From Sedimentisphaerales bacterium (GTDB lineage: Bacteria; Planctomycetota; Phycisphaerae; Sedimentisphaerales; UBA12454), in NCBI GenBank assembly GCA_049691175.1, contig JBAVNP010000015.1:1-58468 (forward strand): a DNA stretch of 58,468 nt. Direction: 5' to 3'. A model generated the notes under the pieces. That model searched no databases. It saw only the letters and a program-made list of their open reading frames with translations, and was not told the DNA's origin. Each line of letters begins with the position of its first letter. Within the stretch, counting starts at the first letter, position 1. Positions 3,724 to 32,012 of this stretch are shown piece after piece. The position numbers and the translations under genes were made by a program.

Positions 3724-4422
3724 TTAAGTTTTTTTCAAGCCGCTCGGTTCCTGCAGTCCGATTTTCTTGCCGGATTTCTGAAAATCAATGATTGCCTGTG
3801 CGGCTTTCTGCGGGTCATCGCAAACTGTAAAAACATTCATATCGCCAGGCTCAATGAACCTGTGTTCGGCCAGCATATCTTTTTTCATCCATTCGATCAG
3901 TCCCGCCCAGTAATCGCTGCCCATAAGAACTACAGGAAAATACGCCTGTTTGAATGTCTGAATCAGGACAAGGGCTTCAGTGAACTCATCCATTGTGCCG
4001 AATCCGCCGGGGAAAACGATAAAGCCGTTGGCGTATTTCAGGAACATCACCTTTCGGCAGAAAAAGTATCTGAAATGCAGCGAAAGATTCTGATCTTTGT
4101 TCGGCATCTGTTCGTGCGGCAGTTCGATATTCAGACCGATGCTTTTACCGCCGACCTGTGCCGCGCCCTTATTTGCCGCTTCCATTATTCCGCTGCCGCC
4201 GCCGGTAATAATCGCAAAGCCTGCCTTTGCTAAAATCGCCGCCGTTTCTTCCGCAAGTTTGTAATATTTGTTATCCGATTTTATTCGTGCCGAGCCGAAA
4301 AACGAAACAGCCGGCCCGATTGTCGCAAGCTCCTCAAAACCTTCGACGAATTCCGCCATTATCCTGAATACCCGCCAGGTTTCTTCCGTCGCCACGCCAA
4401 ATCTCGCTATTTTTTCGCTCAT
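3724..4422 (-). CDS. LOG family / TIGR00730 Rossmann-fold nucleotide-binding protein
   Basis: GGGSGIMEA and PGGFGTMDEF motifs. Start trimmed to the ATG at 4422 (MSEKIARFG), preceded by GGAAAGG. The longer ORF to 4461 runs into a repeat element. Confidence 0.82.
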   Translation of the reverse strand: MSEKIARFGVATEETWRVFRIMAEFVEGFEELATIGPAVSFFGSARIKSDNKYYKLAEETAAILAKAGFAIITGGGSGIMEAANKGAAQVGGKSIGLNIELPHEQMPNKDQNLSLHFRYFFCRKVMFLKYANGFIVFPGGFGTMDEFTEALVLIQTFKQAYFPVVLMGSDYWAGLIEWMKKDMLAEHRFIEPGDMNVFTVCDDPQKAAQAIIDFQKSGKKIGLQEPSGLKKT

Positions 4423-4441
4423 TGTGTTACCTTTCCATTTA

Positions 4442-4546
4442 CCCCCACACCAATGTAACAAGTTTTGAACATTTTTTTGATAAATATTCCATTTTTATTT
4501 TTTTCTCCATAACTTCCTCCCTTACACCAGGACATTGGTGTGGGGG
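4442..4546 (-). repeat. 105-nt element with perfect 15-bp terminal inverted repeats (CCCCCACACCAATGT / ACATTGGTGTGGGGG), copy 1
   Basis: TIRs at 4442-4456 and 4532-4546. The interior is homologous to the copy at 39341-39443 when read on the minus strand. Confidence 0.85.
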
Positions 4547-4547
4547 A

Positions 4548-5204
4548 TTACCACAGCTTTGGATTATCCGCTGCCGGACAGTATTTTGCAATCGGGCAGA
4601 TGCCGCAATCCGGCTTGCGCGCTTTGCATATATTTCTGCCGTGAAAGATAAGCAGATGGCTGAAAAAAGTCCAGTTTTCCTTCGGCACTATTTCCATAAG
4701 GTCAATTTCGAGCTTTTCCGGATTATCTGTGTTGGCCGAAAGCTCAAGTCTTCTGGATAGTCTCAAAACGTGCGTATCGCAAACTATGCCCGGAATGCCG
4801 AACGCGTTGCCTAAAACCACATTTGCCGTTTTTCTGCCGACGCCGTTTAGCTTCAATAGTTCATCCATCGTGTTCGGCACTTTGTTATTATACTCATCTG
4901 TTATTTTTTTGCAGGCATTTTTTATATTGAGAGCCTTGTTGCGGTAAAAGCCTGTGCTTTTTATATCCTGCTCGATTTGTCCAATCGGCGCATCAGCCCA
5001 GTCTTTTGCGGTTTTGTATTTTTTGAAAAGTGTTTTTGTTACGATATTTACCCTCACATCGGTGCACTGAGCGGAAAGTATCGTTGCGATAAGAAGCTGC
5101 AGAGGGTCGGAATGTTCGAGTGCGCATTTCGCCTGCGGATATGTCTTCTTCAATATCGGCCAAATTGCCTTTACCCTCTCTTTCGCTTTTTGCTTGTCGG
5201 CCAT
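4548..5204 (-). CDS. nth: endonuclease III
   Basis: HhH-GPD motifs (LNGVGRKTANVVL) and a C-terminal 4Fe-4S cluster (CKARKPDCGICPIAKYC). Confidence 0.92.
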   Translation of the reverse strand: MADKQKAKERVKAIWPILKKTYPQAKCALEHSDPLQLLIATILSAQCTDVRVNIVTKTLFKKYKTAKDWADAPIGQIEQDIKSTGFYRNKALNIKNACKKITDEYNNKVPNTMDELLKLNGVGRKTANVVLGNAFGIPGIVCDTHVLRLSRRLELSANTDNPEKLEIDLMEIVPKENWTFFSHLLIFHGRNICKARKPDCGICPIAKYCPAADNPKLW

Positions 5205-6979
5205 TATTCTGATGCGTTCTTAAGACCCTGCAAATTTTTTAATAGCTCATTTTTTATCAGGTTGCCGGCCAGTTTGACCGGAGTATTACTGCCCGGCAGA
5301 AGCAAAACAGTTACCGGCACGGCAGGCTCGCTATAAATTTCTTTCAGCGCTTTTGCCGCAGGGTAATCATAGCCTGTTGTATCCGCTTTTACCGCAAGCA
5401 CGCCTTTTTGTTTTATCAAATCAGCAATTTTCCTGCTCGAATATACCGTTTTATCGAGAATCTTGCACGAAAAACACCAGTCAGCAGTGAACTTAATAAG
5501 CACCGGCTGATTAGCTTCTTGTGCCGACTTGATTAACTGTGCATCATAATCCTGCCAGTTGATAAGTCCTTTTTTCGGCTCAGTTAGAAATATAAAACCG
5601 AATATAACCGCCAGGGCAATTGCCGCTAATCTTATCAGCCATTTTTTTGCTTTGGGAGTATTATACCCAACCCAAACCCCCCACATCCAAACGCAGACCG
5701 CAAGCACAATCGCATAATAGAGAATATCTATAATTTTTTCCGGCTGCACTGCCTCGAGCAGTTTTACGCCTATCGCCAGCAGGATAAAACCGGTGGCGTG
5801 TTTGAAAAGCTCCATCCATCTGCCCGGCTTTGGTATTTTTTCAAGAAGACCGGGAATTGCGGTCAATATTATATATGGCAGAGCCATTCCAGCGCCTATC
5901 AGAAGAATTGTTATCGTCGCAAGCGGTATCGGCTGAGTCTGCGCCCAGGCAAGAACAAAAGTGAGAATCGCAAAACTGCACGGCGTGCTGAGAACCGCCG
6001 CCAAAAATCCCATTCCGACAGAACCTGCAAAACCTCCGCTTTGTTTTTTTGCGCCGCCAATTGACGCAGGTATGCCGAATGTAAATAATCCGAACATATA
6101 TAACGCCAGCACTACCATCAGCAATGCCATTCCGATGACAAAGCCGGTATTTCTGAACTGGTCGCCCCACTGAAAGATTATCCCGAATCCGAGTTTGAGA
6201 ATTATACTGACTGCGGCAAGAGCGGCAAAAAATAAAACGATACCCAAGGCAAACGCAAGGCCCAGAGTTATACTTTTTGCCTTGTTTTGTTTTGCCTGCG
6301 AGATGAGTCGCATCACGATAATCGGCAGGATAGGCCAGACGCACGGCATTACGTTCAATAATAGCCCCGCCACCACCGCCAAAAGTAAAATATGTAGTTG
6401 TTTAGCCCCCACTTTTAGTGGGGGTTCGTCATTCTCAACAAGGCGGGAACCCCTGGTCACATTTATTGCAAACGCCGGCTTATCCATCTTCGCGGATTTT
6501 GAAATGTCGAGTTTCCTTGAAAGTTCATAAGATGCCTTTCTGCACAATTGCTCCGAGCAGGAAAGACCGTCTATTGCAACTTTTATTTCGGTGCTTTGTG
6601 CATTTGCTTCTGTTTTAAAAGGAATAAAAACGCTGAAAGCCCCGCTATAAACGGTGAGCTTTTGATTTGTAACCTTATCAAAATATAATTGCCCCTTTGG
6701 GAAAACAGGCTCGGAAAAGATAAGTCCTTTGCTCGCCGGCGTTAATTTCAGGTTCATTCGCTGAGGCGCCGTGTTTGCATCCGCGTAGAAATGCCAGTCT
6801 TTTTCGAGATTGAATTTTATCTGGATTGCGCTGTTCGCTTCCGGCAGAACTGTTTCGTGTTGAAAGATAAGTTCTATCTGTGCAAAATCATCCCTGATTT
6901 TCTCATTCGCAAAAGCGACTGAAAAAAACAGATTTACCGCCGCACAAATTGCTAATAGTAAAAGATACCTTCTGCGCAT
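5204..6979 (-). CDS. dsbD: thiol:disulfide interchange protein DsbD-like (N-terminal periplasmic domain, cytochrome c biogenesis TM core, C-terminal thioredoxin)
   Basis: Signal peptide, multi-TM core with MPCVWPILP, and a C-terminal thioredoxin CxxC (WCFSCK). The stop overlaps the nth start by 1 nt (TAATG). Confidence 0.85.
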   Translation of the reverse strand: MRRRYLLLLAICAAVNLFFSVAFANEKIRDDFAQIELIFQHETVLPEANSAIQIKFNLEKDWHFYADANTAPQRMNLKLTPASKGLIFSEPVFPKGQLYFDKVTNQKLTVYSGAFSVFIPFKTEANAQSTEIKVAIDGLSCSEQLCRKASYELSRKLDISKSAKMDKPAFAINVTRGSRLVENDEPPLKVGAKQLHILLLAVVAGLLLNVMPCVWPILPIIVMRLISQAKQNKAKSITLGLAFALGIVLFFAALAAVSIILKLGFGIIFQWGDQFRNTGFVIGMALLMVVLALYMFGLFTFGIPASIGGAKKQSGGFAGSVGMGFLAAVLSTPCSFAILTFVLAWAQTQPIPLATITILLIGAGMALPYIILTAIPGLLEKIPKPGRWMELFKHATGFILLAIGVKLLEAVQPEKIIDILYYAIVLAVCVWMWGVWVGYNTPKAKKWLIRLAAIALAVIFGFIFLTEPKKGLINWQDYDAQLIKSAQEANQPVLIKFTADWCFSCKILDKTVYSSRKIADLIKQKGVLAVKADTTGYDYPAAKALKEIYSEPAVPVTVLLLPGSNTPVKLAGNLIKNELLKNLQGLKNASE

Positions 6980-9482: not shown

Positions 9483-10483
9483 AGAAAGAGCGCTCTCCAG
9501 TTAAATTTCTTCTTTTTTAACATGCTTTGCGCAAGCAGTTTTTCCTGCTCTTTTTTCATAACGGGTATTTTTTGTTCGGCGGATTTTGCCGCAACGCTGC
9601 TCGGCCAGACCTCGGTTATTCTCTGGTAATAAAGATTCGCAGCGTTATAACTGCCCGTCCTGGCGTAATAATCCGCGACAGTCATCTCCTTTTCCGCAAG
9701 CTTTTCGTCTATCACGCCCAGCTTTTGCGGTATTTGAAGTTCAGCCGCCTTATCCTCATATCTTTTCTGATACTCAGAATAGTAGCTTCTCGAGCTTTCG
9801 AGCACCTTTCCATCAAATTTCGGCCCCCTGTAATCCTTTTCAAGGGTCCGCGCCATTCCGAGCAGTGCATCCTGCCCGACTGGCCCTGTCGGCCATCTGT
9901 TCGACATATCCGACCATACCAGATACGAATCGTAATAAGCGCCTCTTTTCTCGTCGGATTGAGCCAGAGTCTGGAGCGCATTTTTCGCTATCGGGGCATC
10001 GCCCGCCTTGTCCGCGATTTTGTTCATTATCGCCCCGCCTTCATCGTAAGCGGTGATTGAGATTACCCCCAAAGCTCTTTTTTTCTGTCCGCCAAGAAAC
10101 GCAGTGCCAATCTGATACTGCCTCTCGAGCGCTGACAGATAAAATGCGCTTTGCGGAAAGTCATCTGTGAATTTGTCATAAGCCTCCGACGCCTTCTCAT
10201 ACTTTCGCTGACTATACAATAATTCCGCTTTAACAAACGCGTCAAAATCGGCGCCGGCTAATTGAGGATAATCCTTCTTCAGCTTCGCAAAGGCATTTTT
10301 AGCCTTACCTGTCTTGCCGGTAGAAACAAACTGCTTTGCGTCTGAAACGGCCAACATATAACCGGAGTCTTTTTCCTGTCCGACCGGCTGCCATTCCTGA
10401 CCATCTTTCAAGTGCCATGTTTGCTTCGCGGCAAAGACCATCGAACCGAGAATAACAAGTAAAATAAGCCCTTTTGTTCGCAT
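9479..10483 (-). CDS. secreted TPR-repeat protein, BamD/YfiO-like
   Basis: Signal peptide starting at MRTKGLILLVILGSMVFA (ATG at 10483), followed by TPR-like repeats. There is a 4-nt overlap with the downstream lipoprotein gene. Confidence 0.55.
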   Translation of the reverse strand: MRTKGLILLVILGSMVFAAKQTWHLKDGQEWQPVGQEKDSGYMLAVSDAKQFVSTGKTGKAKNAFAKLKKDYPQLAGADFDAFVKAELLYSQRKYEKASEAYDKFTDDFPQSAFYLSALERQYQIGTAFLGGQKKRALGVISITAYDEGGAIMNKIADKAGDAPIAKNALQTLAQSDEKRGAYYDSYLVWSDMSNRWPTGPVGQDALLGMARTLEKDYRGPKFDGKVLESSRSYYSEYQKRYEDKAAELQIPQKLGVIDEKLAEKEMTVADYYARTGSYNAANLYYQRITEVWPSSVAAKSAEQKIPVMKKEQEKLLAQSMLKKKKFNWRALFL

Positions 10484-10751
10484 AACTTTATCCCCGCACC
10501 AATTACCAGTCCCTTGTTTCGATAAAGACTTCGTGTCCATATTTCTTACTCCAATAAACTCATCCCCCACCCCTATCCATCGGCGCGGGGGTCAAGCCGA
10601 CATTATATATAAACCGCTGCGGCCTTGCAAACCTATTCAAAATACGGTATCAGCGGATTCAGCCATACCTTACGGCAAAACAGCCTCCCCTTTCCTAACC
10701 CTCTATTTGTTAGATATTTGCAAAATATTATATAAAATTTATAAAAAATAG

Positions 10752-10779
10752 TTGACTTATTAGAAATATATGGTAAAAT
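10752..10779 (+). promoter_or_regulatory. sigma-70-like promoter (TTGACT-16 nt-TAAAAT with TGg extended -10)
   Basis: -35 at 10752-10757 and -10 at 10774-10779, about 70 nt upstream of the ORF at 10850. Confidence 0.5.
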
Positions 10780-10849
10780 ACCACTATGTTTGATGATTAT
10801 TAAACAAGGCGTTAGGTAATAACTATAAACCATTATTAGAGAGTGACTT

Positions 10850-11149
10850 ATGAAAACGACAGATTTTAAAAAAGAGGAGACAGAATCGCTAAGAAAGCAG
10901 AAAATAGCCCGCAGAATCGCGAAAATGCCAAAAAAATACCGCAAAATCTATAGAAAAGCGGTTGAAAACAATAACAAAGACGCGGCTATTCAGGCCTTCT
11001 GCCTCGAATGTGTCTGCTGGCAAAAAAATGAGATTACCAACTGCCCCTGCTCAGCCTGTCCCCTATACGGCTTGAGACCCTACACAAAAGGAACTGATAA
11101 TGAACAAAAGAAAAATGCCGCGGCAAGAAAACAGCTATCGCACGTTTGA
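10850..11149 (+). CDS. small Cys-rich protein (phage/mobile-element style), function unknown
   Basis: 99 aa: basic N-terminus, then CLECVCWQ...NCPCSACPLYGLRPY. Lies next to an HNH endonuclease. Confidence 0.55.
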   Translation: MKTTDFKKEETESLRKQKIARRIAKMPKKYRKIYRKAVENNNKDAAIQAFCLECVCWQKNEITNCPCSACPLYGLRPYTKGTDNEQKKNAAARKQLSHV

Positions 11150-11858
11150 AATCCGCGGCCAAACAATAATCATTGATGATTTCATTTATCGCAGGCTTTT
11201 CAAAGACCCTGATATACTGCCCCGCAGAAAATATACCTTTATACAAGGTTTCCATTTTTCTGGCGGTTACCCGACAATGATTTTGAAAACTGACGACAAA
11301 TCGATTTCTCTTTCTCGGTATATAATGCACGCGGTAAAGGGAGATTTTGTTGACCACAAAAACAGAAACAGGCTGGATAACCGCCGGCGTAATTTGCGGC
11401 TTGTAAACGCAAGACAAAACAATCTTAACCGCAAAATTAAAAATAACACCGGCCTGATAGGCGTTTCAAAAGGCAGGGATAGAAAGCATTTTTGTGTCAG
11501 AACGGATTTTATAACTAAGCAGGGGCACAGAATAGGTTTTCATTGTCCCGATACTCCATTTAACAGAATTTTGACGGCACTAGCGCACGATAAATTTGTA
11601 TTGCAGCAAGGCGAAGAGGAATACGCGCCGCTGAATTTCCCCTGCTTCAAGTTCGAGCCGTCCAGGAGCATTTTGATGAAGGAGGACCTGAATAAATATA
11701 AAGAAAAAAAATCAAAAGCCTGCCCTGAGCGACCTGTGGTGAGCAAACCCGTCCTGAGTAAAACCGAAGGGGCCGAACCAAGCCGAAGGGTTAAAACTAA
11801 AAACTCAAAACTAAATAAAAGAATATTGCGTTTCTGCCGGAAAATGACCCTCATATAA
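11100..11858 (+). CDS. HNH homing-type endonuclease with AP2-like DNA-binding domain
   Basis: VDHKNRNRLDNRRRNLRLVNARQNN (HNH_3 style), followed by an AP2-like segment (GVSKGRDRKHFCVRTDF...). The C-terminal ~50 aa are encoded by repeat sequence. Overlaps the previous ORF by 50 nt. Confidence 0.78.
   Translation: MNKRKMPRQENSYRTFEIRGQTIIIDDFIYRRLFKDPDILPRRKYTFIQGFHFSGGYPTMILKTDDKSISLSRYIMHAVKGDFVDHKNRNRLDNRRRNLRLVNARQNNLNRKIKNNTGLIGVSKGRDRKHFCVRTDFITKQGHRIGFHCPDTPFNRILTALAHDKFVLQQGEEEYAPLNFPCFKFEPSRSILMKEDLNKYKEKKSKACPERPVVSKPVLSKTEGAEPSRRVKTKNSKLNKRILRFCRKMTLI
11718..11789 (+). repeat. GC-rich dispersed repeat, family A (long form), inside the HNH gene 3' end
   Basis: GCCTGCCCTGAGCGACCTGTGGTGAGC...CGAACCAAGCCGAAGG. 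The reverse complement of the 48-nt copy in truA (28479-28526) matches both ends. Confidence 0.7.
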
Positions 11859-11977
11859 ATCCAGTTAAATGCAAAGACAACAAAATCAGTGGCTATTGTT
11901 TAATTTTAGATTGAAAATTTGTTTGTAGCAAAAAACGTTTTGCCAGAACAAATAATGACTATTACTAATCATTAAAC

Positions 11978-13051
11978 TCAGAATGGTAAGTCTTCATATG
12001 ATTCTGATTCATTTTTAAAATAATCATTAGATGGTTTTTTGAAATCTTCTGTTAGCATAAGCGATGCTGCTGAAGCAGGTATACGTCCTACTCCTTTTAA
12101 TGTTTTTGCTAATTCCTGCCCTTCTCTACTAAATTTAGCAAGAGTTTTAGATAAAGAATCTATACCCTGAATGTTTAGTGCTAATCGTAATACGGTACCA
12201 GAAAAATTGGTCTTGTATAATTTTTTTGTTTTTCCTACTAATAATATCCCTGCATCTCCGCTGCAAATAAAAAAACTTCCACTATTTCGGCACAATCTGC
12301 TTGTCATATATAAACCAAATCCAGCATTTTGCCAATAATCATTAGGTTGAACCTTTTTGCCTTTGTACATTTTTCCGGAAATTCCAGGCAAAAGGCTATT
12401 ATGTATTGCTTCCTTATCTGAAACAATATCCTTTAAAAAAGGATTTTCTGATAAACTTCGCCTAATGCCTATGCCTGTATCCAATATTGAAACTTCAACT
12501 AGGTTTTGACTTGGCCAATATTGAGCACAGTAGTTTATATGACCAGAAGAACTATGCTCAACAACATTTCGTATAATTTCACAAAAAGAATATTTCAAAG
12601 TATCCACCAAATTACCACTGGGTAGTCTAGTCAGAACACACGCAAGTCGATGAGAACGCCGTTCAATTGTTTCACCAATATGTTCCCAGTTTTGATTAGC
12701 ACCATTTTTAAGACTATCAACTTTTACAGAAGTAATTGGTATATAATTCAAACTACCTTTAGCTTCTCCTTGTTGCTTCCCAAAATTTAATCCGAAAGTT
12801 TTAAAAAAACCCATATGTCCTGCATAGTCGAAGTGTTCATGATTAATAGCGTAAAATGTAGATAAGGATTTGCTTTGTCTAAATTTGCTGATTTGAGAAG
12901 ACAGATAAAGCATCCCGAAAGGCTCCACCCAGTCCATATTTGAAAAATCGAAAACATATTCCTCTGAATCTGGCAATTGAAATAATTCATTTGAAAAATT
13001 AATAGCATTATCTAAGGTAAGTAATGGTACCCTTACAACTACACTAGTCAC
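11978..13051 (-). CDS. STAS-like N-terminal domain fused to a GHKL (histidine-kinase-like) ATPase domain; acidic ...YEDLPF C-terminus
   Basis: Bergerat-fold motifs: N-box (EIIRNVVEHS), G1 (LDTGIGI), G2 (AGFGLY). The N-terminus (FDFSNMDWVEPFGMLYLSSQI) resembles STAS/anti-sigma-antagonist-like modules. No HisKA or receiver domain seen. Confidence 0.7.
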   Translation of the reverse strand: MTSVVVRVPLLTLDNAINFSNELFQLPDSEEYVFDFSNMDWVEPFGMLYLSSQISKFRQSKSLSTFYAINHEHFDYAGHMGFFKTFGLNFGKQQGEAKGSLNYIPITSVKVDSLKNGANQNWEHIGETIERRSHRLACVLTRLPSGNLVDTLKYSFCEIIRNVVEHSSSGHINYCAQYWPSQNLVEVSILDTGIGIRRSLSENPFLKDIVSDKEAIHNSLLPGISGKMYKGKKVQPNDYWQNAGFGLYMTSRLCRNSGSFFICSGDAGILLVGKTKKLYKTNFSGTVLRLALNIQGIDSLSKTLAKFSREGQELAKTLKGVGRIPASAASLMLTEDFKKPSNDYFKNESESYEDLPF

Positions 13052-13067
13052 CTTTTATGCTCCGATT

Positions 13068-13382
13068 TTAATTTGTCGTATACTCTTTCCAGGGTATGGC
13101 ATTAAGTGGCACGTTCACCAAAAATTTAACAATATCTGGACGCCCACTATAAGTTGGAATGCCCCTAGAATCTTGTGCCATAAGAATTATAGGAATACCC
13201 GGAAATAACGGCTGAAAGGAATTTATCGCCTCTCTTGTGCTTATACTATTGTCAACAACATATTTTTTAACAATTATAATTGCAAAAGTTACCCCCTGTT
13301 CCCTAATAACAGCACCTTGAAATTTCACTTCTGGTTTCCTTATATTGTTTTTCTTTGCATTGAAAAAATTCCGTTGTTGCAC
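13068..13382 (-). CDS. small hypothetical protein (86-104 aa), first gene of a pair with the GHKL ATPase
   Basis: ORF ends 16 nt upstream of the GHKL gene. The track start is the GTG at 13382. An alternative GTG at 13328 has a better-spaced AGGAAA. Alternating beta/alpha-like pattern; no family recognised. Confidence 0.55.
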   Translation of the reverse strand: MQQRNFFNAKKNNIRKPEVKFQGAVIREQGVTFAIIIVKKYVVDNSISTREAINSFQPLFPGIPIILMAQDSRGIPTYSGRPDIVKFLVNVPLNAIPWKEYTTN

Positions 13383-13398
13383 CTCATGCGACTAGGAA

Positions 13399-13426
13399 AT
13401 TATACATTAAATAAAAGAGAGGGCAA
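13399..13426 (-). promoter_or_regulatory. sigma-70-like promoter (TTGCCC-16 nt-TATAAT) for the small-ORF/GHKL pair
   Basis: On the minus strand, -35 = 13426-13421 and -10 = 13404-13399. Lies in the 75-nt gap between the 261-aa and 104-aa ORFs. Confidence 0.4.
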
Positions 13427-13457
13427 GATTTTTTCGGGACAAATAATTATGTATTTA

Positions 13458-14243
13458 TTAGTTTTTTTGAGGATAAAAGACACCCAAGACCATAAAGGTA
13501 GTGCGAAATCTTTTCAGATTGCCAACATAAAAATAAACATCTTTTTTCGCCGTGTTAGCAATATCAAGCCAGCGTTGTTTAATTTTTTCCAAAAGAACTT
13601 TATCGGTTGGATATTTTGATCGCCAATCTCTATAAGCCTGGCCGATTTCCCAATCGATAATGGATAGTTTATGGCCGGGACAATTGTCCTCGCCGAAACA
13701 TTTGAATTTATAATAAAAACTAAAAGGAATTTCTTCAATTGGATCCTTCTTTTTATTTTTATCAAAGAAACTCAATTGAGCATAGCAGACCTCTCTTGCC
13801 TGCTGGTCGGATAAACTCTGTTTTGCGCATTCAAAAGAAATATCAGCAGGTTTTATAAGCCCCAGAGAAAGATCGCTGCTGGGCTCAGCATCTTTATAGA
13901 CCTGACACATTGATTTTACAGGAACTTTTAAAACAATAGATTTGCGTCTTTCCCATGTGCCTTTGTCCGTATCAAGCTGGTCTATAATTTTTATAGTATC
14001 TACATTTACATGAAAGCTTTCCGGCCTCTTGTCATCGGATGGGATAGAGCAGTCAACTTCGATAATGCTGTATTTTTTAAACTGTTGTCCTTCGTCGAGG
14101 TCGCGGTACGGAATGGGATAAAGACGGACTAATTGTGAATTGCTTAAATCAACCCCGGCACAACATACAGTTTCGCTATATTTCCTACTGGGATTTGGGT
14201 AGGCTTTTACGGTTACAAGTATTTTCTTTTTCTCGAACTTCAC
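13458..14243 (-). CDS. hypothetical protein, 261 aa, partner of DUF488
   Basis: Long ORF 6 nt downstream of the DUF488 gene. Notable motifs: VKAYPNPSRKYSETVCCAG and CFGEDNCPGHKLSIIDWEIG. No domain recognised by eye. Confidence 0.7.
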   Translation of the reverse strand: MKFEKKKILVTVKAYPNPSRKYSETVCCAGVDLSNSQLVRLYPIPYRDLDEGQQFKKYSIIEVDCSIPSDDKRPESFHVNVDTIKIIDQLDTDKGTWERRKSIVLKVPVKSMCQVYKDAEPSSDLSLGLIKPADISFECAKQSLSDQQAREVCYAQLSFFDKNKKKDPIEEIPFSFYYKFKCFGEDNCPGHKLSIIDWEIGQAYRDWRSKYPTDKVLLEKIKQRWLDIANTAKKDVYFYVGNLKRFRTTFMVLGVFYPQKN

Positions 14244-14249
14244 TGAATT

Positions 14250-14693
14250 TTAAATATGTATTATTTTTAAGCCGTTTCCATCATACTCTTTTATTTTATC
14301 AGCCACTATTGATCGATGGCATTTTTCCGGAAATCGTTCAAAACACATAATGCAGGTTACCCCATCGAAGAGGTACTGATACACTTTTTTCACGGCATCC
14401 ATATTCTTTGATAAATACGCTGAATAAGCCTTGAAAAAATACTCATAATCCCAGTCAGATTTTAACTTATTGCGTATTGCGGCAGGACTTCCGAGGGGTT
14501 TTTCATGAATATATTCGATATTCTCATCTTTAAGTCTTTGTCCCAAGGTTGATTTCGAGAAGCCTTTTTTTCTTGAAAGGGGAATTTCTCTGACATCAAT
14601 AAGATGTGTGACGTTAAAACTTTTTAGACGAAGAACAAACTCGTCTATTTCCCTTCCTTCGTATCCTATAGTTAATAATTCATATTGTTTCAT
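14250..14693 (-). CDS. DUF488 domain protein
   Basis: LLTIGYEGREIDEFV...LIDVREIPLSRKKGFSK..L...L....IEYIH...LGSP matches the DUF488 pattern. Confidence 0.85.
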   Translation of the reverse strand: MKQYELLTIGYEGREIDEFVLRLKSFNVTHLIDVREIPLSRKKGFSKSTLGQRLKDENIEYIHEKPLGSPAAIRNKLKSDWDYEYFFKAYSAYLSKNMDAVKKVYQYLFDGVTCIMCFERFPEKCHRSIVADKIKEYDGNGLKIIHI

Positions 14694-14791
14694 AACTGCT
14701 TAATTATAACAATATTATATCGGTATAAATAGGGCGATTTCATAAATTAATAAAGGTAATATCAACGACCACCCGAAACAGGGGATTAATT

Positions 14792-14814
14792 CCTTCGACC
14801 CTGCTCAGGGCGGG
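14792..14814 (-). repeat. GC-rich dispersed repeat, family A (short form)
   Basis: CCTTCGACCCTGCTCAGGGCGGG shares the CCTTCG...GCTCAGGGC(A/G)GG ends with the truA and surA-like copies. Orientation is opposite to the copy at 11718-11789. Confidence 0.5.
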
Positions 14815-14837
14815 TAAGTTTTAAATCCGGTTTTATC

Positions 14838-15080
14838 TTATCCAATGATTAGCAGGGCCATCCAGGGGACGAAATTGAAGACCAGGACAAAAATCTTCAT
14901 TGCTCCAAGGAACGAGTAGAAGAGGATATTGAACGCTTCTTTGGAAAGTTTGAACCATTTGCTGTGCATCCGGTAGACAAAATCGCCGGCGAAGACCCAC
15001 ATAGCAAACGCAGCAAGCAGCAATGCCCCGTTCAAAATCGTGCACCACATAAAAAACGCTCTGACGGCTGTGATATCCAT
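14838..15080 (-). CDS. 80-aa integral membrane protein (paralog of 57378..57620)
   Basis: MDITAVRAFFMWCTI... with two or three hydrophobic segments. AAGGAGATTTATT-ATG RBS is shared with the paralog. Confidence 0.7.
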   Translation of the reverse strand: MDITAVRAFFMWCTILNGALLLAAFAMWVFAGDFVYRMHSKWFKLSKEAFNILFYSFLGAMKIFVLVFNFVPWMALLIIG

Positions 15081-15128
15081 AATAAATCTCCTTATTTTTT
15101 ATTCTGCCGAATTACAGCTTAAATTGCT

Positions 15129-15446
15129 CTAATGTATGCCAAGGTCGTTTATCTGTTTTGTCACCTGATGATACATCTGTCCCATAAGCTGACAAAGCCA
15201 GACAGTAACTCCGATAACAACAACGGTGATGACAATCTTGGTAATCAATTTGTATTTCGGGTTTGCCCAGACCAGCGGCAGCGCAAGCGGCCCCAGAGCA
15301 GCCAGGCCGACCACAATCGCCGATGTGGAATAATACCACTTTGTTTTCGGCTTTGGCCTGTAAGAGTCATCGAGAAACTCGCCGCAAAAACGGCACTTTA
15401 TCGCCTCTTCCTGAATTTCCTCAGCACAAAAACGGCATTTCTTCAT
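15129..15446 (-). CDS. zinc-ribbon domain membrane protein
   Basis: N-terminal CRFCAEEIQEEAIKCRFCGEFLD followed by two TM segments. The same zinc-ribbon head is found on 35824..36516. Confidence 0.7.
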   Translation of the reverse strand: MKKCRFCAEEIQEEAIKCRFCGEFLDDSYRPKPKTKWYYSTSAIVVGLAALGPLALPLVWANPKYKLITKIVITVVVIGVTVWLCQLMGQMYHQVTKQINDLGIH

Positions 15447-15580
15447 ATCGGGTCTTCTTGTTTTTTATATTAATAAAATTATAACCTTAAATTGGGCGGA
15501 AAACAAGAATTAGTTTTGAGTTCTTAGTTTTGAGTTCTGAGTTAAAAAATCCGTGAAATCTGTGGTTACAAGATGCGCAT

Positions 15581-15621
15581 AAAAATGCCCCCTCTGCTGC
15601 TTGCGCAGCAAGCGAGGGGGC
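15581..15621 (-). terminator. rho-independent terminator downstream of the PPIase gene
   Basis: The minus strand reads GCCCCCTCGCTTGCTGC-GCAA-GCAGCAGAGGGGGC followed by ATTTTTAT. Confidence 0.6.
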
Positions 15622-15637
15622 GTTGTTTAAAACTTAA

Positions 15638-16897
15638 TTACTCTTTTTTAGACTCACCTGTATCTTTCGAAGCGGGCTTGTTTGTATCTGAACTCGGCGG
15701 ATTCTCAGTTGCTTTTCGGCTCGGGGTAGGTTTTGTGCCGGGGATTTCGGTTTCGAGCTTATCTGCCGCCTCGTTGGTATATTTTATATCGGCTCCAGTC
15801 CTGATTTTCTGGATGTAATCCATCATAACCTGCTCTCTTTGCTTGTCGGCAAGAGTCTGCTTAATCTCATCTTTGGACTTTTCGAAACTTACTGTGCCGG
15901 CATCTATATGCTCGATGAGCTTTATAATATGGAAGCCGAAGCTGGTCTCTACAACATCGCTAATCTGGCCCGGCTTTAGAGCATAGGCAGCTTTTTCAAA
16001 CTCCGGCACAAGATTGCCTTTAGCCTGGATTCCGAGGTCGCCGCCCTGCTTGCTGGAAGGACAGGCTGAGTATTGTTTCGCGAGGTCGTTAAAATCGGCG
16101 CCGGCTTTCAGCTTCTTGAGAAGACCTTCGGCTTTCGCCTTTGCTTCTGCTTTGGCCTTGTTGGGGTCATTGGCGTCCTGTGCAGGGGCTATAAGTATAT
16201 GCTTGGCGTGAATCGACTCAGGCTTGTTGAACTGCTGTATATTTTCGTCATAGTATGCCTTGATCTGCTGGTCGGTGGGCGGCTGCATTTTGTCGGCGAA
16301 TTTGGTGTCCATCAGCTTTTCAAACATAAGTTTCTTGGTCATATTCTTCTGATATTCGCCGAAGGTTGTGCCGTAGGCTTTCAGCAGCGCTTTAAATTCA
16401 TCGAGAGTTAAATTCTGCGATGCAATCTGCTTGTTGATTTGCTGGTCCAGTTCGGCCTGATTAACATCGATATTATTTTTCTTCTCATCCTCCGTGATAA
16501 GCTGTTCGATTACAAGCTGTTCGATAATGCGTTTTCTTATCTGCTGACGATATTGCGGCACCATATTTTCAGGAACTCTGCCAGCCATTTGCTGCATACG
16601 CGGATTTAGAATGTCCTCGATTTGCCCTTCGGTGATGGATGTCCCGTTGACAGTTACTATAACATTCGCATCTTTTGCCTCGACGCCTTCGGCAGGGCTG
16701 AGGGCAGGCCCATTCGGCAAGCTCAGGGCAGGGGCGGCGGTCGACTCACTGACAGGAGCCTTCGGTTCTTCGACGGGTTTATTCGCTTCCGCCACAGCAT
16801 TTTTCGATTCCGCAGCAGGTTTTTTCGGCTTTGCTGCAAATGCCGCTGTCGATAACAAAATAACCAAAACAAGTGAAATACTTACGATAGTTTTCAT
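15638..16897 (-). CDS. periplasmic peptidyl-prolyl isomerase, SurA/PrsA (parvulin) family
   Basis: Signal peptide, SurA-like N-terminal chaperone region, parvulin motifs (HAKHILI, FGFHIIKL). Low-complexity N- and C-terminal extensions. Confidence 0.85.
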   Translation of the reverse strand: MKTIVSISLVLVILLSTAAFAAKPKKPAAESKNAVAEANKPVEEPKAPVSESTAAPALSLPNGPALSPAEGVEAKDANVIVTVNGTSITEGQIEDILNPRMQQMAGRVPENMVPQYRQQIRKRIIEQLVIEQLITEDEKKNNIDVNQAELDQQINKQIASQNLTLDEFKALLKAYGTTFGEYQKNMTKKLMFEKLMDTKFADKMQPPTDQQIKAYYDENIQQFNKPESIHAKHILIAPAQDANDPNKAKAEAKAKAEGLLKKLKAGADFNDLAKQYSACPSSKQGGDLGIQAKGNLVPEFEKAAYALKPGQISDVVETSFGFHIIKLIEHIDAGTVSFEKSKDEIKQTLADKQREQVMMDYIQKIRTGADIKYTNEAADKLETEIPGTKPTPSRKATENPPSSDTNKPASKDTGESKKE

Positions 16898-21768: not shown

Positions 21769-22854
21769 TTATTTTGCAACTTCGGCAGCAACAAGGTCAC
21801 CAACCTGAGAGGTTGAATAGCCCATTTTTCCGGCGGCCATACTTTTCATCTTATTGGCCGTTACGAATTTAACAGCATCTTCGATTTTTTTAGCCGCTTT
21901 TTCTTCGCCGAGCGTCTCGAGCATCATTTGAGCGGCGCAGATTGCCGCCAATGGATTGATTACACCCAGGCCGGTGTATTTCGGTGCGCTTCCGCCGATA
22001 GGCTCAAACATCGAAACGCCTTCGGGGTTAAGATTTCCGCCGGCCGCGATACCCATTCCGCCCTGCGTTATCGCGCCAAGATCGGTGATGATATCGCCGA
22101 ACAAATTGCCGGTTACGAGAACATCGAACCACTCAGGACTCTTGACCATCCACATACAGGTCGCGTCAACATGATAATAATCCCTGCGGATATCAGGATA
22201 TTCTTTTTTGCCCATTTCGTGGAAAGCTCTTTCCCAAAGGTCGTAAATATATGTAAGGACGTTTGTCTTGCCGACAAGGGCAAGCGTATTTTCCGGTCCG
22301 ACTCCGCGAGCCTTTTTGCCGTGCTTTCTGGCGTATTCAAAGGCGAACTTCAGACATCTATCGACCTGAAAACGATTGTAAACTGCCGATTGTACCGCAA
22401 CTTCATTTGGCGTGCCTTTCAAAGTAAAGCCGCCTGCGCCGGTATATGCGTCGCCGGAATTTTCGCGAACGACAACATAATCGATTTCCTTGGGGCCTTT
22501 GCCCTTGAGCGGACATTCAACGCCGGGGAATAATCGGACCGGCCTTAAATTTATATACTGGTCAAGCTCAAAGCGAGCCTTGAGCAAAATGCCTTTTTCA
22601 AGAATGCCGGGCTTTACGTCGGGATGGCCGATAGCGCCGAGCAGAATAGCGTCGAATTTACGGAGTTCGGCAATAGCGCTATCCGGCAGAGTTTCGCCAG
22701 TCCTTTTATATCTTTCGCCGCCGAAATCGAAATCCGTCAAATCGGCTTTGAACCCGAACTTTGCGGCAGCAGCCTTTAAAACCTTTGCTGCTTCAGCCGT
22801 TACTTCCGGCCCAGTCCCGTCGCCGCCAATTACAGCAATCTTGTACGTCTTCAT
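21769..22854 (-). CDS. leuB: 3-isopropylmalate dehydrogenase
   Basis: Isocitrate/isopropylmalate dehydrogenase family pattern, in a leu gene cluster. Confidence 0.88.
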   Translation of the reverse strand: MKTYKIAVIGGDGTGPEVTAEAAKVLKAAAAKFGFKADLTDFDFGGERYKRTGETLPDSAIAELRKFDAILLGAIGHPDVKPGILEKGILLKARFELDQYINLRPVRLFPGVECPLKGKGPKEIDYVVVRENSGDAYTGAGGFTLKGTPNEVAVQSAVYNRFQVDRCLKFAFEYARKHGKKARGVGPENTLALVGKTNVLTYIYDLWERAFHEMGKKEYPDIRRDYYHVDATCMWMVKSPEWFDVLVTGNLFGDIITDLGAITQGGMGIAAGGNLNPEGVSMFEPIGGSAPKYTGLGVINPLAAICAAQMMLETLGEEKAAKKIEDAVKFVTANKMKSMAAGKMGYSTSQVGDLVAAEVAK

Positions 22855-22964
22855 TTAAGAATGTCCTTTCGTATAGTAATTTCTTCTTTAAAAATAAGTT
22901 TGTTTCTGTAACAAAATTAAAAATAAAATATAAAAGAGTAAAAATACAAATCAAAAACAAAAAA

Positions 22965-23327
22965 TCATCGTTTGCCTTTGAGCGTTAAAATGCTGGAGGC
23001 AAAAATATTAGCTATTTCATTCAATTCTGCCAAAAGTTTATTTGCTTCATCCGATTCGGCTCTTTTTGTGTCTCTAAGCAATGCCAGCCATAATTTGCTT
23101 TCATTCGCAGATTTTAGCGAATAATGGAAATACTGAGTATATTCCTTTTTGCCATTTGCGGCCTGACTTTCAGCGAAATTGGCTGCAATACTTGTTCCAC
23201 TGCGCAGTAACTGATCACCAATTCGCTTTGAGACATTGTCATTAGGCAGATGGTCGAGGAAGCCTATAAGCCGAAGCGTAAAAGCATACAACCTTTTTTT
23301 AAACTCATTATTAGCTTGCTTTGCCAT
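22965..23327 (-). CDS. four-helix-bundle protein (23S rRNA intervening-sequence protein family, TIGR02436-like)
   Basis: 120 aa with the family pattern (...LLRSGTSIAANFAES...YFHYSLKSANESKLWLALL...). Sits between leuD and leuB with A/T-rich low-complexity flanks. Confidence 0.85.
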   Translation of the reverse strand: MAKQANNEFKKRLYAFTLRLIGFLDHLPNDNVSKRIGDQLLRSGTSIAANFAESQAANGKKEYTQYFHYSLKSANESKLWLALLRDTKRAESDEANKLLAELNEIANIFASSILTLKGKR

Positions 23328-23357
23328 TTTTAATTTTTTATCTGTATCTTTTATTTC

Positions 23358-23840
23358 TTATTTTTTATTTTTAATATGATTTAACAGTCCGCCGTCATTG
23401 ACAATTTCAATCGCGAAATCCGGCAGCGGCTTAAACTTTATTTCTTTTTTCTGCGTTTTATTGTTAATTACGCCTTTTTTATAATCGACTTCAATTTCAT
23501 CGCCGATATTTATTTTTTCTGTCGCGCCGTCAAGCTCAATCGGATAAAAGCCGCAATTGATGCAATTGCGATAGAAAATCCGCGCGAATGATTTTGCGAT
23601 AACCGCGCCGACTTTTGCTCCCTGAATCGCCCAAACGGCGTGTTCCCTGCTTGAGCCGCAGCCGAAATCGTCGCCTGCGACTATACAATCGCCTGGCTTG
23701 CACTTTTTGACAAATTCCGTGTCAAGGTCTTCCATACAATGCTGCGCAAGTTCGGCAACATTATCGGTATTCAAATACCTTGCGGGTATTATTTCGTCCG
23801 TATTTATATGGTCGCGTTTATAAGTATGAGCTTTCGACAT
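23358..23840 (-). CDS. leuD: 3-isopropylmalate dehydratase small subunit
   Basis: Aconitase swivel-domain pattern (GDDFGCGSSREHA). Confidence 0.92.
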   Translation of the reverse strand: MSKAHTYKRDHINTDEIIPARYLNTDNVAELAQHCMEDLDTEFVKKCKPGDCIVAGDDFGCGSSREHAVWAIQGAKVGAVIAKSFARIFYRNCINCGFYPIELDGATEKINIGDEIEVDYKKGVINNKTQKKEIKFKPLPDFAIEIVNDGGLLNHIKNKK

Positions 23841-29352: not shown

Positions 29353-30513
29353 ATGAAGATAGTGCACATAATAACAAGACTGATTCTCGGCGGAGCGCAG
29401 GAAAATACGCTAATCACCTGCAAAGAGCTTGCCGCCCGCGGACACGATGTAACTTTAATCACCGGCCCTGCTTTAGGCCCTGAAGGCGAACTTTTCGAAC
29501 AAACCAAAAACCAAAAATACAAAACTATCGTCATTGATTCGATACGGCGGCAAATTAATCCGATTTATGATGTTTGCGCTTATAACAAAATAAAAAAACT
29601 GCTGGCGGAAATTCAGCCTGACATAGTTCATACGCATTCAGCAAAAGCGGGAATCCTCGGCAGATTTGCTGCTTATAATTTAAAGAACCGTCCTAAAATA
29701 GTCCATTCAGTCCACGGCCTGTCTTTTCACAAGTATCAAAACGAGCTGCTTAATAAATTTTATATAGCCGTTGAAAGAGCGGCAGCGAAAAAAACAGACG
29801 CTTTTATTTGCGTCGCCGATGCGATGACAGAAAAAAGTCTTGCTGCGGGAATAGGCAGACCCGAGCAATATACAACCGCCTATTCGGCCATAGAAGAAGA
29901 ACAATTTTTGAATCCGATTACAGCTAAAGTGCGAACCGATTTCCGCAAAAAATATGATATTCCTGAAAATGCTATTGTTCTTGTAACTGTCGCGAGACTG
30001 TTTCATTTAAAGGGGCATAAATATATAATCGAATCAGCCAGGGAACTTGCAGGACGTTTCGAAAACGTAATCTGGCTTTTTGTCGGCGACGGCATTTTGA
30101 AAGAGCAATTACAAAAACAAATCGCCGATTCAGATTTATCCGATAAATTCAGGTTCACAGGTCTTTTGCCTGTTGAGCAGATGCCGCTTGTAGTTCAGTC
30201 CTCAGATATTTTAGTTCATTGTTCTCTACGGGAAGGTTTGGCAAGAGTTCTGCCGCAGGCGCTTGCTTGCGGCAGACCTGTGATAAGTTTCGATATCGAT
30301 GGCGCCGCGGAAGTTGTAAACCCTGATACAGGCAGGCTCGTTGAGCCGGAGAATGTCGAGCAGTTGACGCAAGTTTGTGCGGAATTGATTGCAAATGAAA
30401 ATCTGCGAATGAAACTCGGCCGAGCCGGCAGAGAATCCGTCAAAGAAAAATTCTCGCCAAAAACTATGGTCGATAAAATTGAAGAGGTCTACAAATTGAT
30501 AAATCATAATTGA
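29353..30513 (+). CDS. glycosyltransferase family 4 (GT-B, RfaB-like)
   Basis: N-terminal GGAQ glycosyltransferase pattern and the C-terminal Glycos_transf_1 E-x7-E region (REGLARVLPQALACGRPVI). Confidence 0.88.
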   Translation: MKIVHIITRLILGGAQENTLITCKELAARGHDVTLITGPALGPEGELFEQTKNQKYKTIVIDSIRRQINPIYDVCAYNKIKKLLAEIQPDIVHTHSAKAGILGRFAAYNLKNRPKIVHSVHGLSFHKYQNELLNKFYIAVERAAAKKTDAFICVADAMTEKSLAAGIGRPEQYTTAYSAIEEEQFLNPITAKVRTDFRKKYDIPENAIVLVTVARLFHLKGHKYIIESARELAGRFENVIWLFVGDGILKEQLQKQIADSDLSDKFRFTGLLPVEQMPLVVQSSDILVHCSLREGLARVLPQALACGRPVISFDIDGAAEVVNPDTGRLVEPENVEQLTQVCAELIANENLRMKLGRAGRESVKEKFSPKTMVDKIEEVYKLINHN

Positions 30514-30578
30514 ATTGATTTTTAATAATTTCGATATTTGTTTAATTAACTAATTCAGAACTTAGGAGCATAAGTAAT

Positions 30579-32012
30579 ATGAGAACTATTTTTTCTTTAA
30601 TTGTTTTTTTATTGATACTATTTACCCAATCTCTTTGCGCTCAAGCAAATCAAATAAACAGAGTAATTATCCTAACCGATATTGAAGCTGACCCGGACGA
30701 TACACAATCTTTGATTCGTTTACTTTTATATTCTAATGAAATTGATATAAAAGGCTTGGTTGCAACAACTTCTTGTTGGCATAGAACAAGGGTTGATCCT
30801 GAATCCATTAAAAAAATAATCCAAGCCTATGGCAAAGTACAGCCAAACCTTAAGAAACATGAAGCTGGTTTTCCTGAAACTGAAGCGCTTTTAATGAAAG
30901 TAAAACAAGGCATAGCAAAATATGGAATGCAGGGCGTTGGCGATGGAAATGATTCACAAGGTTCGGACTGGATTATAAAAGTACTTGAAGAAAAAGATGA
31001 GCGTCCATTATGGATATCTGTCTGGGGAGGTGCGAATACCCTGGCACAGGCACTTTATAAAATTAAAAATACAAAAACAGAGGCGGAAGCTAAAAAATTA
31101 ATTGCAAAACTCAGAGTTTATACAATTTCCGACCAGGATGACAGCGGAATATGGCTTAGAAATAATTTCCCCGACTTGTTTTACATTGTTAGTCCGGGCG
31201 ATGATTACGGAAGCGCAACATGGAATGCAATTAATAGTTTTGTGAAAGGTATAAACAATGATGAGATTAGCAATAATTGGCTGGCACAAAACATTCAGCA
31301 GGGGCACGGTCCTCTTGGCGCAGCATATCCTGATGTAGCCTGGGGGATGGAGGGCGATACGCCATCATGGTTGTCGTTAATACCTAACGGACTAAATGAA
31401 GCAGAGCATCCTGACTGGGGAGGTTGGGGTGGTCGTTACGAACTGTACAAGCCAGATTTTGCTACGCTTAAGAAAGGAGAATCGGGTGTTCCATTTGAAC
31501 CCGAGACAAGGGAAATATGGACAAATGCAATTGATAGCTACACCCCATATAGTTATAATGAATATGGACGAGCGGTTCGAAAGGACACGGTTTCCTTCAC
31601 CGATAATAAAGTGACTTTGTGGCGTTGGCGAGATGACTTTCAAAATGATTTTGCCGCCCGAATGGATTGGTGTACAAAATCATATCAGGCAGCCAATCAT
31701 CCACCAGTTCCTGTATTAAGGCATCCCGAAGAAATAACTGTAAAATCAGGAGAGGGCTTTGGTTTGGATGCCAGCGGCTCTACCGATCCTGATGGAGATA
31801 GTCTCAGTTATCTATGGTTTAACTATCCAGAGGCTGGTTCATATAAAAAATTGATACAAATTGGTGGAGCGGAGAATGCGCGTGCGGTTTACGTGATAGC
31901 TCCTGAGGTTGAAAAAAACGAAACTATTCATTTTATTTTGAGAGTTACAGACAAAGGTAAGCCTCAATTATCAAGGTATAAAAGAGTGATCGTTAATGTA
32001 TTGCCAAAATAA
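30579..32012 (+). CDS. secreted DUF1593 (nucleoside-hydrolase-like) protein with C-terminal Ig-like domain
   Basis: Signal peptide, then VIILTDIEADPDDTQSLIRLLLYSNEIDIKGLVATTS, characteristic of DUF1593. Confidence 0.82.
   Translation: MRTIFSLIVFLLILFTQSLCAQANQINRVIILTDIEADPDDTQSLIRLLLYSNEIDIKGLVATTSCWHRTRVDPESIKKIIQAYGKVQPNLKKHEAGFPETEALLMKVKQGIAKYGMQGVGDGNDSQGSDWIIKVLEEKDERPLWISVWGGANTLAQALYKIKNTKTEAEAKKLIAKLRVYTISDQDDSGIWLRNNFPDLFYIVSPGDDYGSATWNAINSFVKGINNDEISNNWLAQNIQQGHGPLGAAYPDVAWGMEGDTPSWLSLIPNGLNEAEHPDWGGWGGRYELYKPDFATLKKGESGVPFEPETREIWTNAIDSYTPYSYNEYGRAVRKDTVSFTDNKVTLWRWRDDFQNDFAARMDWCTKSYQAANHPPVPVLRHPEEITVKSGEGFGLDASGSTDPDGDSLSYLWFNYPEAGSYKKLIQIGGAENARAVYVIAPEVEKNETIHFILRVTDKGKPQLSRYKRVIVNVLPK

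Follow-up and report, generated by a model that had tools for sequence, protein, structure and literature searches.

Among described systems, those closest to the genes considered here are PDC-M19, a candidate pair of DUF488 and DuOB genes listed in PADLOC-DB, and the proteins SpoIIAA (STAS) and SpoIIAB (a GHKL kinase). By genomic position one may add lambda rexAB and the proven defence genes 43/44 of the Gordonia phage CarolAnn, which are co-expressed with the repressor (PMC6426606). We compared with them an accessory island found in a stretch of 58,468 nucleotides (nt), here called the window, which is contig JBAVNP010000015.1 of a Sedimentisphaerales (Planctomycetota) metagenome-assembled genome (MAG) and to whose numbering the coordinates refer. 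The island is flanked by genes for LptE, a BamD-like protein and FtsH on one side and for SurA on the other. An earlier note on this DNA had placed there a Cys-rich protein and an HNH/AP2 endonuclease on the plus strand, facing four minus-strand genes (DUF488, an unknown protein of 261 amino acids (aa), an unknown 104-aa protein and a 357-aa STAS-like/GHKL protein), and had proposed a new defence locus. Our map of open reading frames (ORFs) reproduced the positions and strands of all six ORFs exactly, as well as the spacings of 6 nt (between the DUF488 and 261-aa genes) and 16 nt (between the 104-aa ORF and the 357-aa gene). We found, however, that the four-gene block is two unrelated two-gene cassettes lying side by side, not one system. 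One is a DUF488-DuOB pair, and the other combines a small protein of 86 aa with the STAS-GHKL protein; the latter pair is uncharacterised and absent from the libraries searched.

Co-occurrence separates the four genes into two pairs

A DuOB profile scan covering one genome per species (185,579 species) returned 312 relatives, and 80 loci were kept. No 86-aa or GHKL relative was present at any of these 80 loci, including those of the closest Planctomycetota DuOB proteins (85-89% identity; loci L013-L015), and DUF488 adjoined DuOB in 76 of them, the four exceptions being three loci cut by contig ends and one with a truncated DuOB. A metagenome scan with the 86-aa profile gave more than 517 relatives, of which the best 80 loci were examined; 79 of these lacked the other three genes, and the quartet was found only in the closest relative, L093. 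Among all loci examined, only the window, L001 and L093 hold all four genes. The 86-aa/GHKL pair also exists without DUF488-DuOB, both in L197 (GHKL 71% and small protein 83% identical, 15-nt gap), where an IS200-like gene lies downstream of the pair, and in L196 (GHKL 52% and small protein 57% identical, 8-nt gap). In the window itself, 75 nt separate the two pairs, or 129 nt if the 86-aa start is used, and this gap holds a promoter-like site (Table 1) whose position would suit transcription of the 86-aa/GHKL pair as a unit of its own.

These distributions speak against the four genes as one system, and the statement in the earlier note that no known system has such a gene content did not survive either, since DUF488 plus DuOB is the PADLOC-DB candidate PDC-M19. 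The broader suggestion of a defence island fared better in part. The families are patchy and mobile and at least two of them are tied to defence contexts, but the quartet is not a unit. Homologs occurring singly in housekeeping contexts, which the note had named as evidence against its idea, are what we found for the quartet and the GHKL gene (alone among leuA/ilvC genes in L194), and not for the two pairs.

The DUF488 and 261-aa genes match the candidate PDC-M19

The 261-aa protein, which the earlier note had left as unknown, belongs to the DuOB / PDC-M19B family (Table 1), its residues 4-260 aligning with positions 2-262 of the 269 in the PADLOC profile. The match to the Pfam DuOB model itself (PF22557, 'dual OB-containing domain') is weak, with 17.2 bits vs a cut-off of 27; precomputed PF22557 matches exist for several DuOB homologs that are 60-76% identical to the window protein. 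The DUF488 domain named in the earlier note is clearly recognised by Pfam, and the same protein matches PADLOC PDC-M19A (PDLC04505) at 6.3e-38 and, weakly, the Pfam 'Active DUF488-N3 subclade'. Judged by these profile matches, the two genes, adjacent and co-oriented on the same strand with the 6-nt gap, are the catalogued but unvalidated PADLOC candidate PDC-M19, a strict and self-contained pair. The difference from the canonical candidate lies in the DUF488 protein, which covers profile positions 148-294 of 294 only; the N-terminal half of PDC-M19A is absent from it and from all 76 relatives found.

The pair is found in Planctomycetota, Omnitrophota, Aminicenantes, Zixibacteria, Chloroflexota, Candidate Phyla Radiation lineages, Firmicutes, Proteobacteria and one archaeon, in two arrangements, either co-directional or tail-to-tail. 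No third conserved gene occurs around it (119 immediate neighbours). In all 58 of 58 loci compared, the G+C content of the module is lower than that of its flanks, by 9.5 points on average. Residues invariant among 72 DUF488 sequences are T8, G10, Y11, D33, R35, S40, R41 and the motif C117-x-E119 ... C125-H126-R127; DuOB proteins share an invariant Cys/His set (C27, C28, C65, C113, C182, C188 and H191) together with many invariant charged residues. Residues that look catalytic are among those that never vary. A PDB profile search with the DuOB family found no relatives, a PDB search with DUF488 returned noise only, and the term 'PDC-M19' had no match in the literature searched, where the DUF488 papers found were incidental mentions. 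In the mechanism that we propose, the dual-OB protein with its Cys/His cluster would bind DNA ends or single-stranded nucleic acid; invading DNA would be disabled by the enzyme of the pair, through removal or transfer of a phosphate or sugar-phosphate at the terminus. Terminal-phosphate processing has been proposed for the related DUF4326 domain (PMC9503650).

The DUF488-DuOB pair occurs in the immunity cassette of Gordonia phages

DuOB relatives were found in seven Gordonia temperate-phage records, that of Nymphadora and six related ones. In Nymphadora (L198, NC_031061), gene 42 (4825-5277), annotated 'HipA toxin?', encodes DUF488 (35% identity to the window protein, 4e-29), and gene 43 (3980-4834), annotated 'hypothetical', encodes DuOB. 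Gene 43 follows the immunity-repressor gene 44 directly downstream, with no intergenic gap, and the pair lies within the integrase-repressor-Cro lysogeny/immunity cassette. The six related records likewise have DuOB immediately after the repressor and DUF488 next to it. This is the same slot by the repressor as that of lambda rexAB and CarolAnn 43/44; the likeness is positional only, as RexA and RexB have no sequence relationship to Nymphadora 42/43. The possibility that the 'repressor' gene 44 is an HTH-DUF488 fusion was considered and rejected, the DUF488 gene being gene 42.

The 86-aa protein stands beside changing partners

The 104-aa ORF of the earlier note is almost certainly an 86-aa gene, because NCBI annotates 86 aa and about 500 listed homologs begin with MKFQG. 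The family comprises 725 clusters at 50% identity, nearly all of about 86 aa and stand-alone, and the close relatives listed are 60-75% identical across phyla. Fusions to other domains (response regulator-LuxR, ABC ATPase, gp5-OB) are sporadic single cases, maybe gene-calling artefacts, and were set aside. No Pfam, NCBIfam or PADLOC v2 family matches the protein, the only match being an unannotated PHROG (Table 1), and a PDB profile search with the family found no relatives. Its AlphaFold2 model reached a pLDDT of 94.7. Foldseek searches of PDB and BFVD with this model gave no confident structural match and only weak ones (TM-score 0.3-0.47), to tRNA-splicing-endonuclease-like and PD-(D/E)xK-like folds, on which no assignment was based.

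We scanned against PADLOC 116 immediate-neighbour proteins of 86-aa genes on other metagenome contigs. Matches were obtained for PDC-M14A-like zinc-ribbon proteins (9, directly downstream), PDC-M69A-like proteins (6), RmrA- and CapH/CapP-like regulators (7-8), WYL (3), mad2 (3) and methyltransferases, and neighbour clusters scanned separately added IetA/IetS (3 loci), a TIR-like protein and PD-T7-5-like proteins. DUF2188, which matches PDC-S16, is near the 86-aa gene in 9 loci and directly upstream of it in 7. A co-directional ORF begins within 150 nt downstream in 38 of the 72 loci with room for one, and these ORFs belong to unrelated families. The downstream partners in L011 and L008 were also tried as possible GHKL relatives and rejected, as tblastn gave no match and their N-termini are transmembrane.

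In the pair found in the window, the GHKL domain, fused to its STAS partner, would act as a SpoIIAB-type switch driven by ATP or as a kinase of that type, and the 86-aa protein as a conserved adaptor, sensor or inhibitor. Elsewhere, the small protein would be wired to other outputs, such as the TIR-like, PD-T7-5-like, PDC-M14A-like and membrane proteins. It is possible, if rather doubtful, that an undescribed modular defence family is built around the 86-aa protein, this nearly invariant component being joined to interchangeable outputs and the unit often being under CapH/CapP- or WYL-type control.

The 357-aa protein combines STAS-like and SpoIIAB-like domains

The STAS-like/GHKL architecture suggested in the earlier note for the 357-aa protein (WCE45_00305 in NCBI) is supported by its AlphaFold2 model (pLDDT 80.6). 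In Foldseek searches the C-terminal domain matched SpoIIAB with a probability of 1.0 and a target-normalised TM-score of 0.57-0.66, SpoIIAB and CheA P4 matches together spanning probabilities of 0.97-1.0, and the N-terminal domain matched a STAS-containing SLC26A7 chain over 90 columns (probability 0.93). Pfam HATPase_c remained below its cut-off (19.5 vs 26.4), and a PDB profile search with the family found no relatives. Residues at the usual positions of the GHKL ATP-binding motifs (N, G1 and G2 boxes) are invariant in 25 homologs, namely E158/N162/H166, D191xGxG195 and G244xG246. A GHKL (Bergerat) fold with ATP-binding motif residues is thus supported by the predicted structure. The C-terminal domain superposes on SpoIIAB and the N-terminal match is of the STAS type, as in SpoIIAA; the differences are that in the window a single chain carries both domains, that no sigma factor gene is adjacent, and that the family is found on plasmids and prophages and near nucleases or the 86-aa gene.

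Homologs form 915 clusters, mostly of about 338 aa, and many are gammaproteobacterial. In gammaproteobacteria the GHKL gene is followed by that of an HNH nuclease (Aeromonas) or of a HEPN pEK499_p136 protein (Psychrobacter), with no 86-aa gene, which suggests a pair of GHKL plus a swappable nuclease. The nuclease after STAS-GHKL was seen to vary by genus (L002, 1419-1997; L005, 7154-7927). Other homologs lie on plasmids of Phaeobacter and of Acinetobacter, in the latter beside BrnT/BrnA, or on prophage-like contigs beside an integrase, Rz or an AAA_21 ATPase, and in some loci the gene is tandemly duplicated. In three prophage-like loci (L183, L190 and L191, at about 5950-6770 in each), STAS-GHKL is followed by a shorter paralog of about 250-270 aa that has the GHKL part only; the one in L190 was detected by tblastn only.

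The island occupies an old and still-changing site

The six hand counts of G+C in 60-nt lines given in the earlier note were all exact (13, 18, 16, 23, 29 and 29), and a windowed calculation confirmed the AT-richness of the four-gene block. Its G+C content is 35.2%, the lowest in the window, vs a mean of 45.5% (standard deviation 1.9, minimum 40.2%) in windows of the same size outside the island, and G+C at the third codon position (GC3) is 0.21-0.36 in its genes vs 0.42-0.53 in flanking ones. An accessory and compositionally foreign island between core genes, as the note had described it, is therefore supported, and its site is variable as well.

The syntenic relative L001 (flank identity 78% for LptE, 64% for BamD and 65% for SurA) carries at the same site the same quartet together with the HNH and Cys-rich genes, in an equally AT-rich island. 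Between the window and L001, identity is higher for DUF488 (92%) and for the 86-aa protein (94%) than for the flanking core proteins (64-78%). The site is an old, still-changing hot spot and not a recent insertion, because the diverged L001 holds the quartet there too. Gene content does turn over at the SurA-BamD site, since L001 has gained a HigB(Gp49)/HigA toxin-antitoxin pair between the GHKL and HNH genes (5707-6455 of L001) and lacks the DUF6868 and zinc-ribbon genes that adjoin the quartet in the window.

An inverted repeat of 22 nt (Table 1) brackets positions 11815-15509, that is the GHKL, 86-aa, DuOB, DUF488, DUF6868 and zinc-ribbon genes. Its arms differ by 1 mismatch, none is expected by chance (100 shuffles), and the window contains no further copy of the motif. 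No transposase or recombinase is encoded inside the bracketed segment, and the motif was not found in L001. A 13-mer of the repeat is also present in L039 as two inverted copies (1219-1231 and 2325-2337); between them lie a gene for an apparent four-helix-bundle ('23S rRNA intervening sequence') protein and another small gene. Direct repeats around the island are short, imperfect, chance-like pairs only. The only tRNA of the window is located at 36.7 kb and therefore offers no tRNA-linked integration site.

The plus-strand cassette was described in the earlier note as an HNH/AP2 endonuclease with a Cys-rich neighbour. The endonuclease assignment holds, as HNH_3 is matched above its cut-off (Table 1), along with a weak match to the PADLOC 'homing endonuclease', but AP2 gave no Pfam match at E<=0.1. 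The Cys-rich protein, probably zinc-binding, matched no family in any library scanned (Pfam, PADLOC and PHROG among them); a homolog 76% identical to it lies beside the HNH gene in L001. Relatives of the window HNH protein occur in three other Planctomycetota genomes, directly upstream of DUF488-DuOB in L014 (164-793) and L043 (6763-7419), and 2.7 kb upstream of it in L015 (168-911). Among the 119 DUF488-DuOB neighbour proteins, AP2 was matched by 2 and HNH_3 by 2, consistent with the HNH relatives of L014 and L043. This proximity may reflect homing-endonuclease-assisted spread, or the mere abundance of HNH genes in the phylum. The homing-type endonuclease and its Cys-rich partner would be a third, selfish element of the island.

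Competing explanations of the island

A conflict-related accessory island, the broader idea of the earlier note, is plausible but unproven. We consider it probable, in more specific terms, that the SurA-BamD site is a defence/conflict hot spot of independent mobile cassettes, namely the PDC-M19 pair and the uncharacterised 86-aa/GHKL pair. The modular structure of the locus, the mobility of its families and their genomic contexts are direct observations; an anti-phage or conflict function, like all the biochemistry of both modules, is what we infer from them. Several points weigh against this explanation. PDC-M19 is itself a candidate nominated by guilt-by-embedding, and the window DUF488 corresponds to the C-terminal half of the M19A profile only. 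The immediate neighbours of DUF488-DuOB are mostly housekeeping genes; about 10 of the 119 have a PADLOC match by a tally of per-family counts, which leaves enrichment unproven. Most GHKL homologs have no 86-aa gene beside them and most 86-aa genes no GHKL gene, and the physical partnership of the two is therefore only putative. Finally, the island has stayed in place since the divergence of the two lineages, and such retention would fit a useful host function equally well. Such a function is the core of an alternative that we find unlikely, in which the genes serve ordinary cell functions: DUF488-DuOB would take part in nucleic-acid repair or end-processing, and STAS-GHKL would regulate a sigma factor or stress response by partner switching, its target being the 86-aa protein. 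On one hand, this would agree with the mostly housekeeping neighbours, with the insertion of the GHKL gene among leuA/ilvC genes in L194, with the stable inheritance of the island under strong purifying selection, and with a fold most like that of SpoIIAB, an anti-sigma-factor kinase. On the other hand, the families are rare and patchy (312 DuOB matches in the 185,579 species genomes) and AT-rich relative to the host at all 58 loci; they are present on plasmids, on prophage-like contigs and in phage immunity cassettes; genes for defence and for its regulation abound next to the 86-aa gene; and the window has no sigma factor gene next to the pair.

The pairs might instead be selfish cassettes of the addiction or toxin-antitoxin-like kind, or be carried as cargo by a small mobile element that has the 22-nt repeats as its ends. 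They would then persist by post-segregational killing or homing and not through any protection of the host. We regard this as quite improbable, even though a small conserved gene before a variable larger one resembles a toxin-antitoxin layout, related loci contain or adjoin true toxin-antitoxin pairs (HigBA in L001, BrnTA in L193), the flanking inverted repeat exceeds chance expectation, and an HNH homing endonuclease lies at the island edge and an IS200-like gene beside the L197 pair. The repeat-bounded segment, however, lacks a transposase or recombinase and includes the DUF6868 and zinc-ribbon genes of normal G+C content, L001 is without the repeat, and no island family matches a known toxin or antitoxin in the library scans. 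Least credible, and in our opinion very improbable, is the proposal of a single new defence system with the four minus-strand genes as its components, to which the facing HNH nuclease might contribute. Tight packing and common orientation would suit it, as would the retention of the quartet in three related contigs and the recurrence of HNH_3 genes near DUF488-DuOB in Planctomycetota. Nevertheless, it is already contradicted by co-occurrence at both the DuOB and the 86-aa loci, by the 86-aa/GHKL pairs that stand without DUF488-DuOB, and by the 129-nt gap with its promoter-like site between the pairs.

With the hot spot of independent cassettes as the favoured explanation, the units to clone and test are the two separate pairs and not the quartet. 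DUF488-DuOB is a compact and widely dispersed candidate, ranging from Candidate Phyla Radiation bacteria to Gordonia phages, and its enzyme chemistry is unexplored; should a phenotype emerge, PDC-M19 would be validated and the DUF488 domain would gain a function. Less expected as a lead is the 86-aa protein, conserved across phyla and placed beside changing effector-like genes and defence regulators. Without a phenotype for either pair, the locus would be an ordinary variable accessory island.

Feature coordinates and minor observations

Table 1. Features of the island and its borders, in order along the window
Feature	Position	Strand	Basis and remarks
Promoter-like site TTGACT, 16 nt, TAAAAT with TG (sigma-70-like)	10752..10779	+	upstream of the Cys-rich gene; 10/12 consensus positions; consensus match only
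Cys-rich protein, 99 aa	10850..11149	+	overlaps the HNH ORF by 50 nt
HNH_3 endonuclease, homing type, 252 aa	11100..11858	+	Pfam HNH_3 28.6 bits (cut-off 24.8); phrog_99 3e-17
Inverted repeat, left arm, 22 nt, AAAACTAAAAACTCAAAACTAA	11793..11814		inside the 3' tail of the HNH ORF
Protein with STAS-like N-terminal domain and SpoIIAB-like GHKL ATPase/kinase domain, 357 aa	11978..13051	-	structure model; phrog_3364 3e-28
Highly conserved small protein, 86 aa	13068..13328 (ORF to 13382 = 104 aa)	-	NCBI annotation; phrog_23950 8e-31; 16 nt upstream of the GHKL gene
Promoter-like site TTGCCC, 16 nt, TATAAT	13399..13426	-	gap between the two pairs; consensus match only
DuOB-family protein (PDC-M19B-like), 261 aa	13458..14243	-	PADLOC PDLC04508 3.2e-64; phrog_25907 4.5e-58
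DUF488 protein (PDC-M19A-like, DUF488 domain only), 147 aa	14250..14693	-	Pfam DUF488 (PF04343) 97.2 bits vs 22.2 cut-off, 1.4e-27
Promoter-like site ATGAAA, 18 nt, TATAAT	14714..14743	-	upstream of DUF488; consensus match only
DUF6868 small membrane protein	14838..15080	-	Pfam 7.6e-26; variable neighbour, G+C 0.465 (normal), absent from L001
Zinc-ribbon and transmembrane protein, 105 aa	15129..15446	-	library scans; variable neighbour, absent from L001
Inverted repeat, right arm, two tandem 14-nt copies, TTAGTTTTGAGTTC x2	15510..15545		repeat search

The strong consensus promoter reported in the earlier note does exist as a site, but promoter-like sites are barely commoner than in shuffled sequence (21 found vs 15.4 expected). 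An Rfam scan of 10300-15700 at E<=1 gave no match. Membership in DISARM was also considered and rejected: residues 72-226 of a window protein match positions 73-212 of one DrmA profile (6.5e-07), a local match to 140 of 1750 profile positions, but a helicase domain is missing, and neither DrmB nor DrmC nor a methylase is encoded nearby (eight proteins scanned).

A homolog of the 105-aa zinc-ribbon and transmembrane protein lies upstream of DUF488-DuOB in L013. In another Planctomycetes MAG (L011/L012, 6001-7664), an 86-aa homolog and an unrelated 328-aa protein with a transmembrane N-terminus are found beside a DUF6868 gene, whose product is 51% identical to the DUF6868 protein abutting the island in the window; this adjacency may reflect a shared insertion neighbourhood. 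Milder dips in G+C content (0.38-0.39) occur at 22500-23500 and 30000-31500 of the window, the second of them spanning ORFs of 386 aa (29353-30513) and 477 aa (30579-32012).

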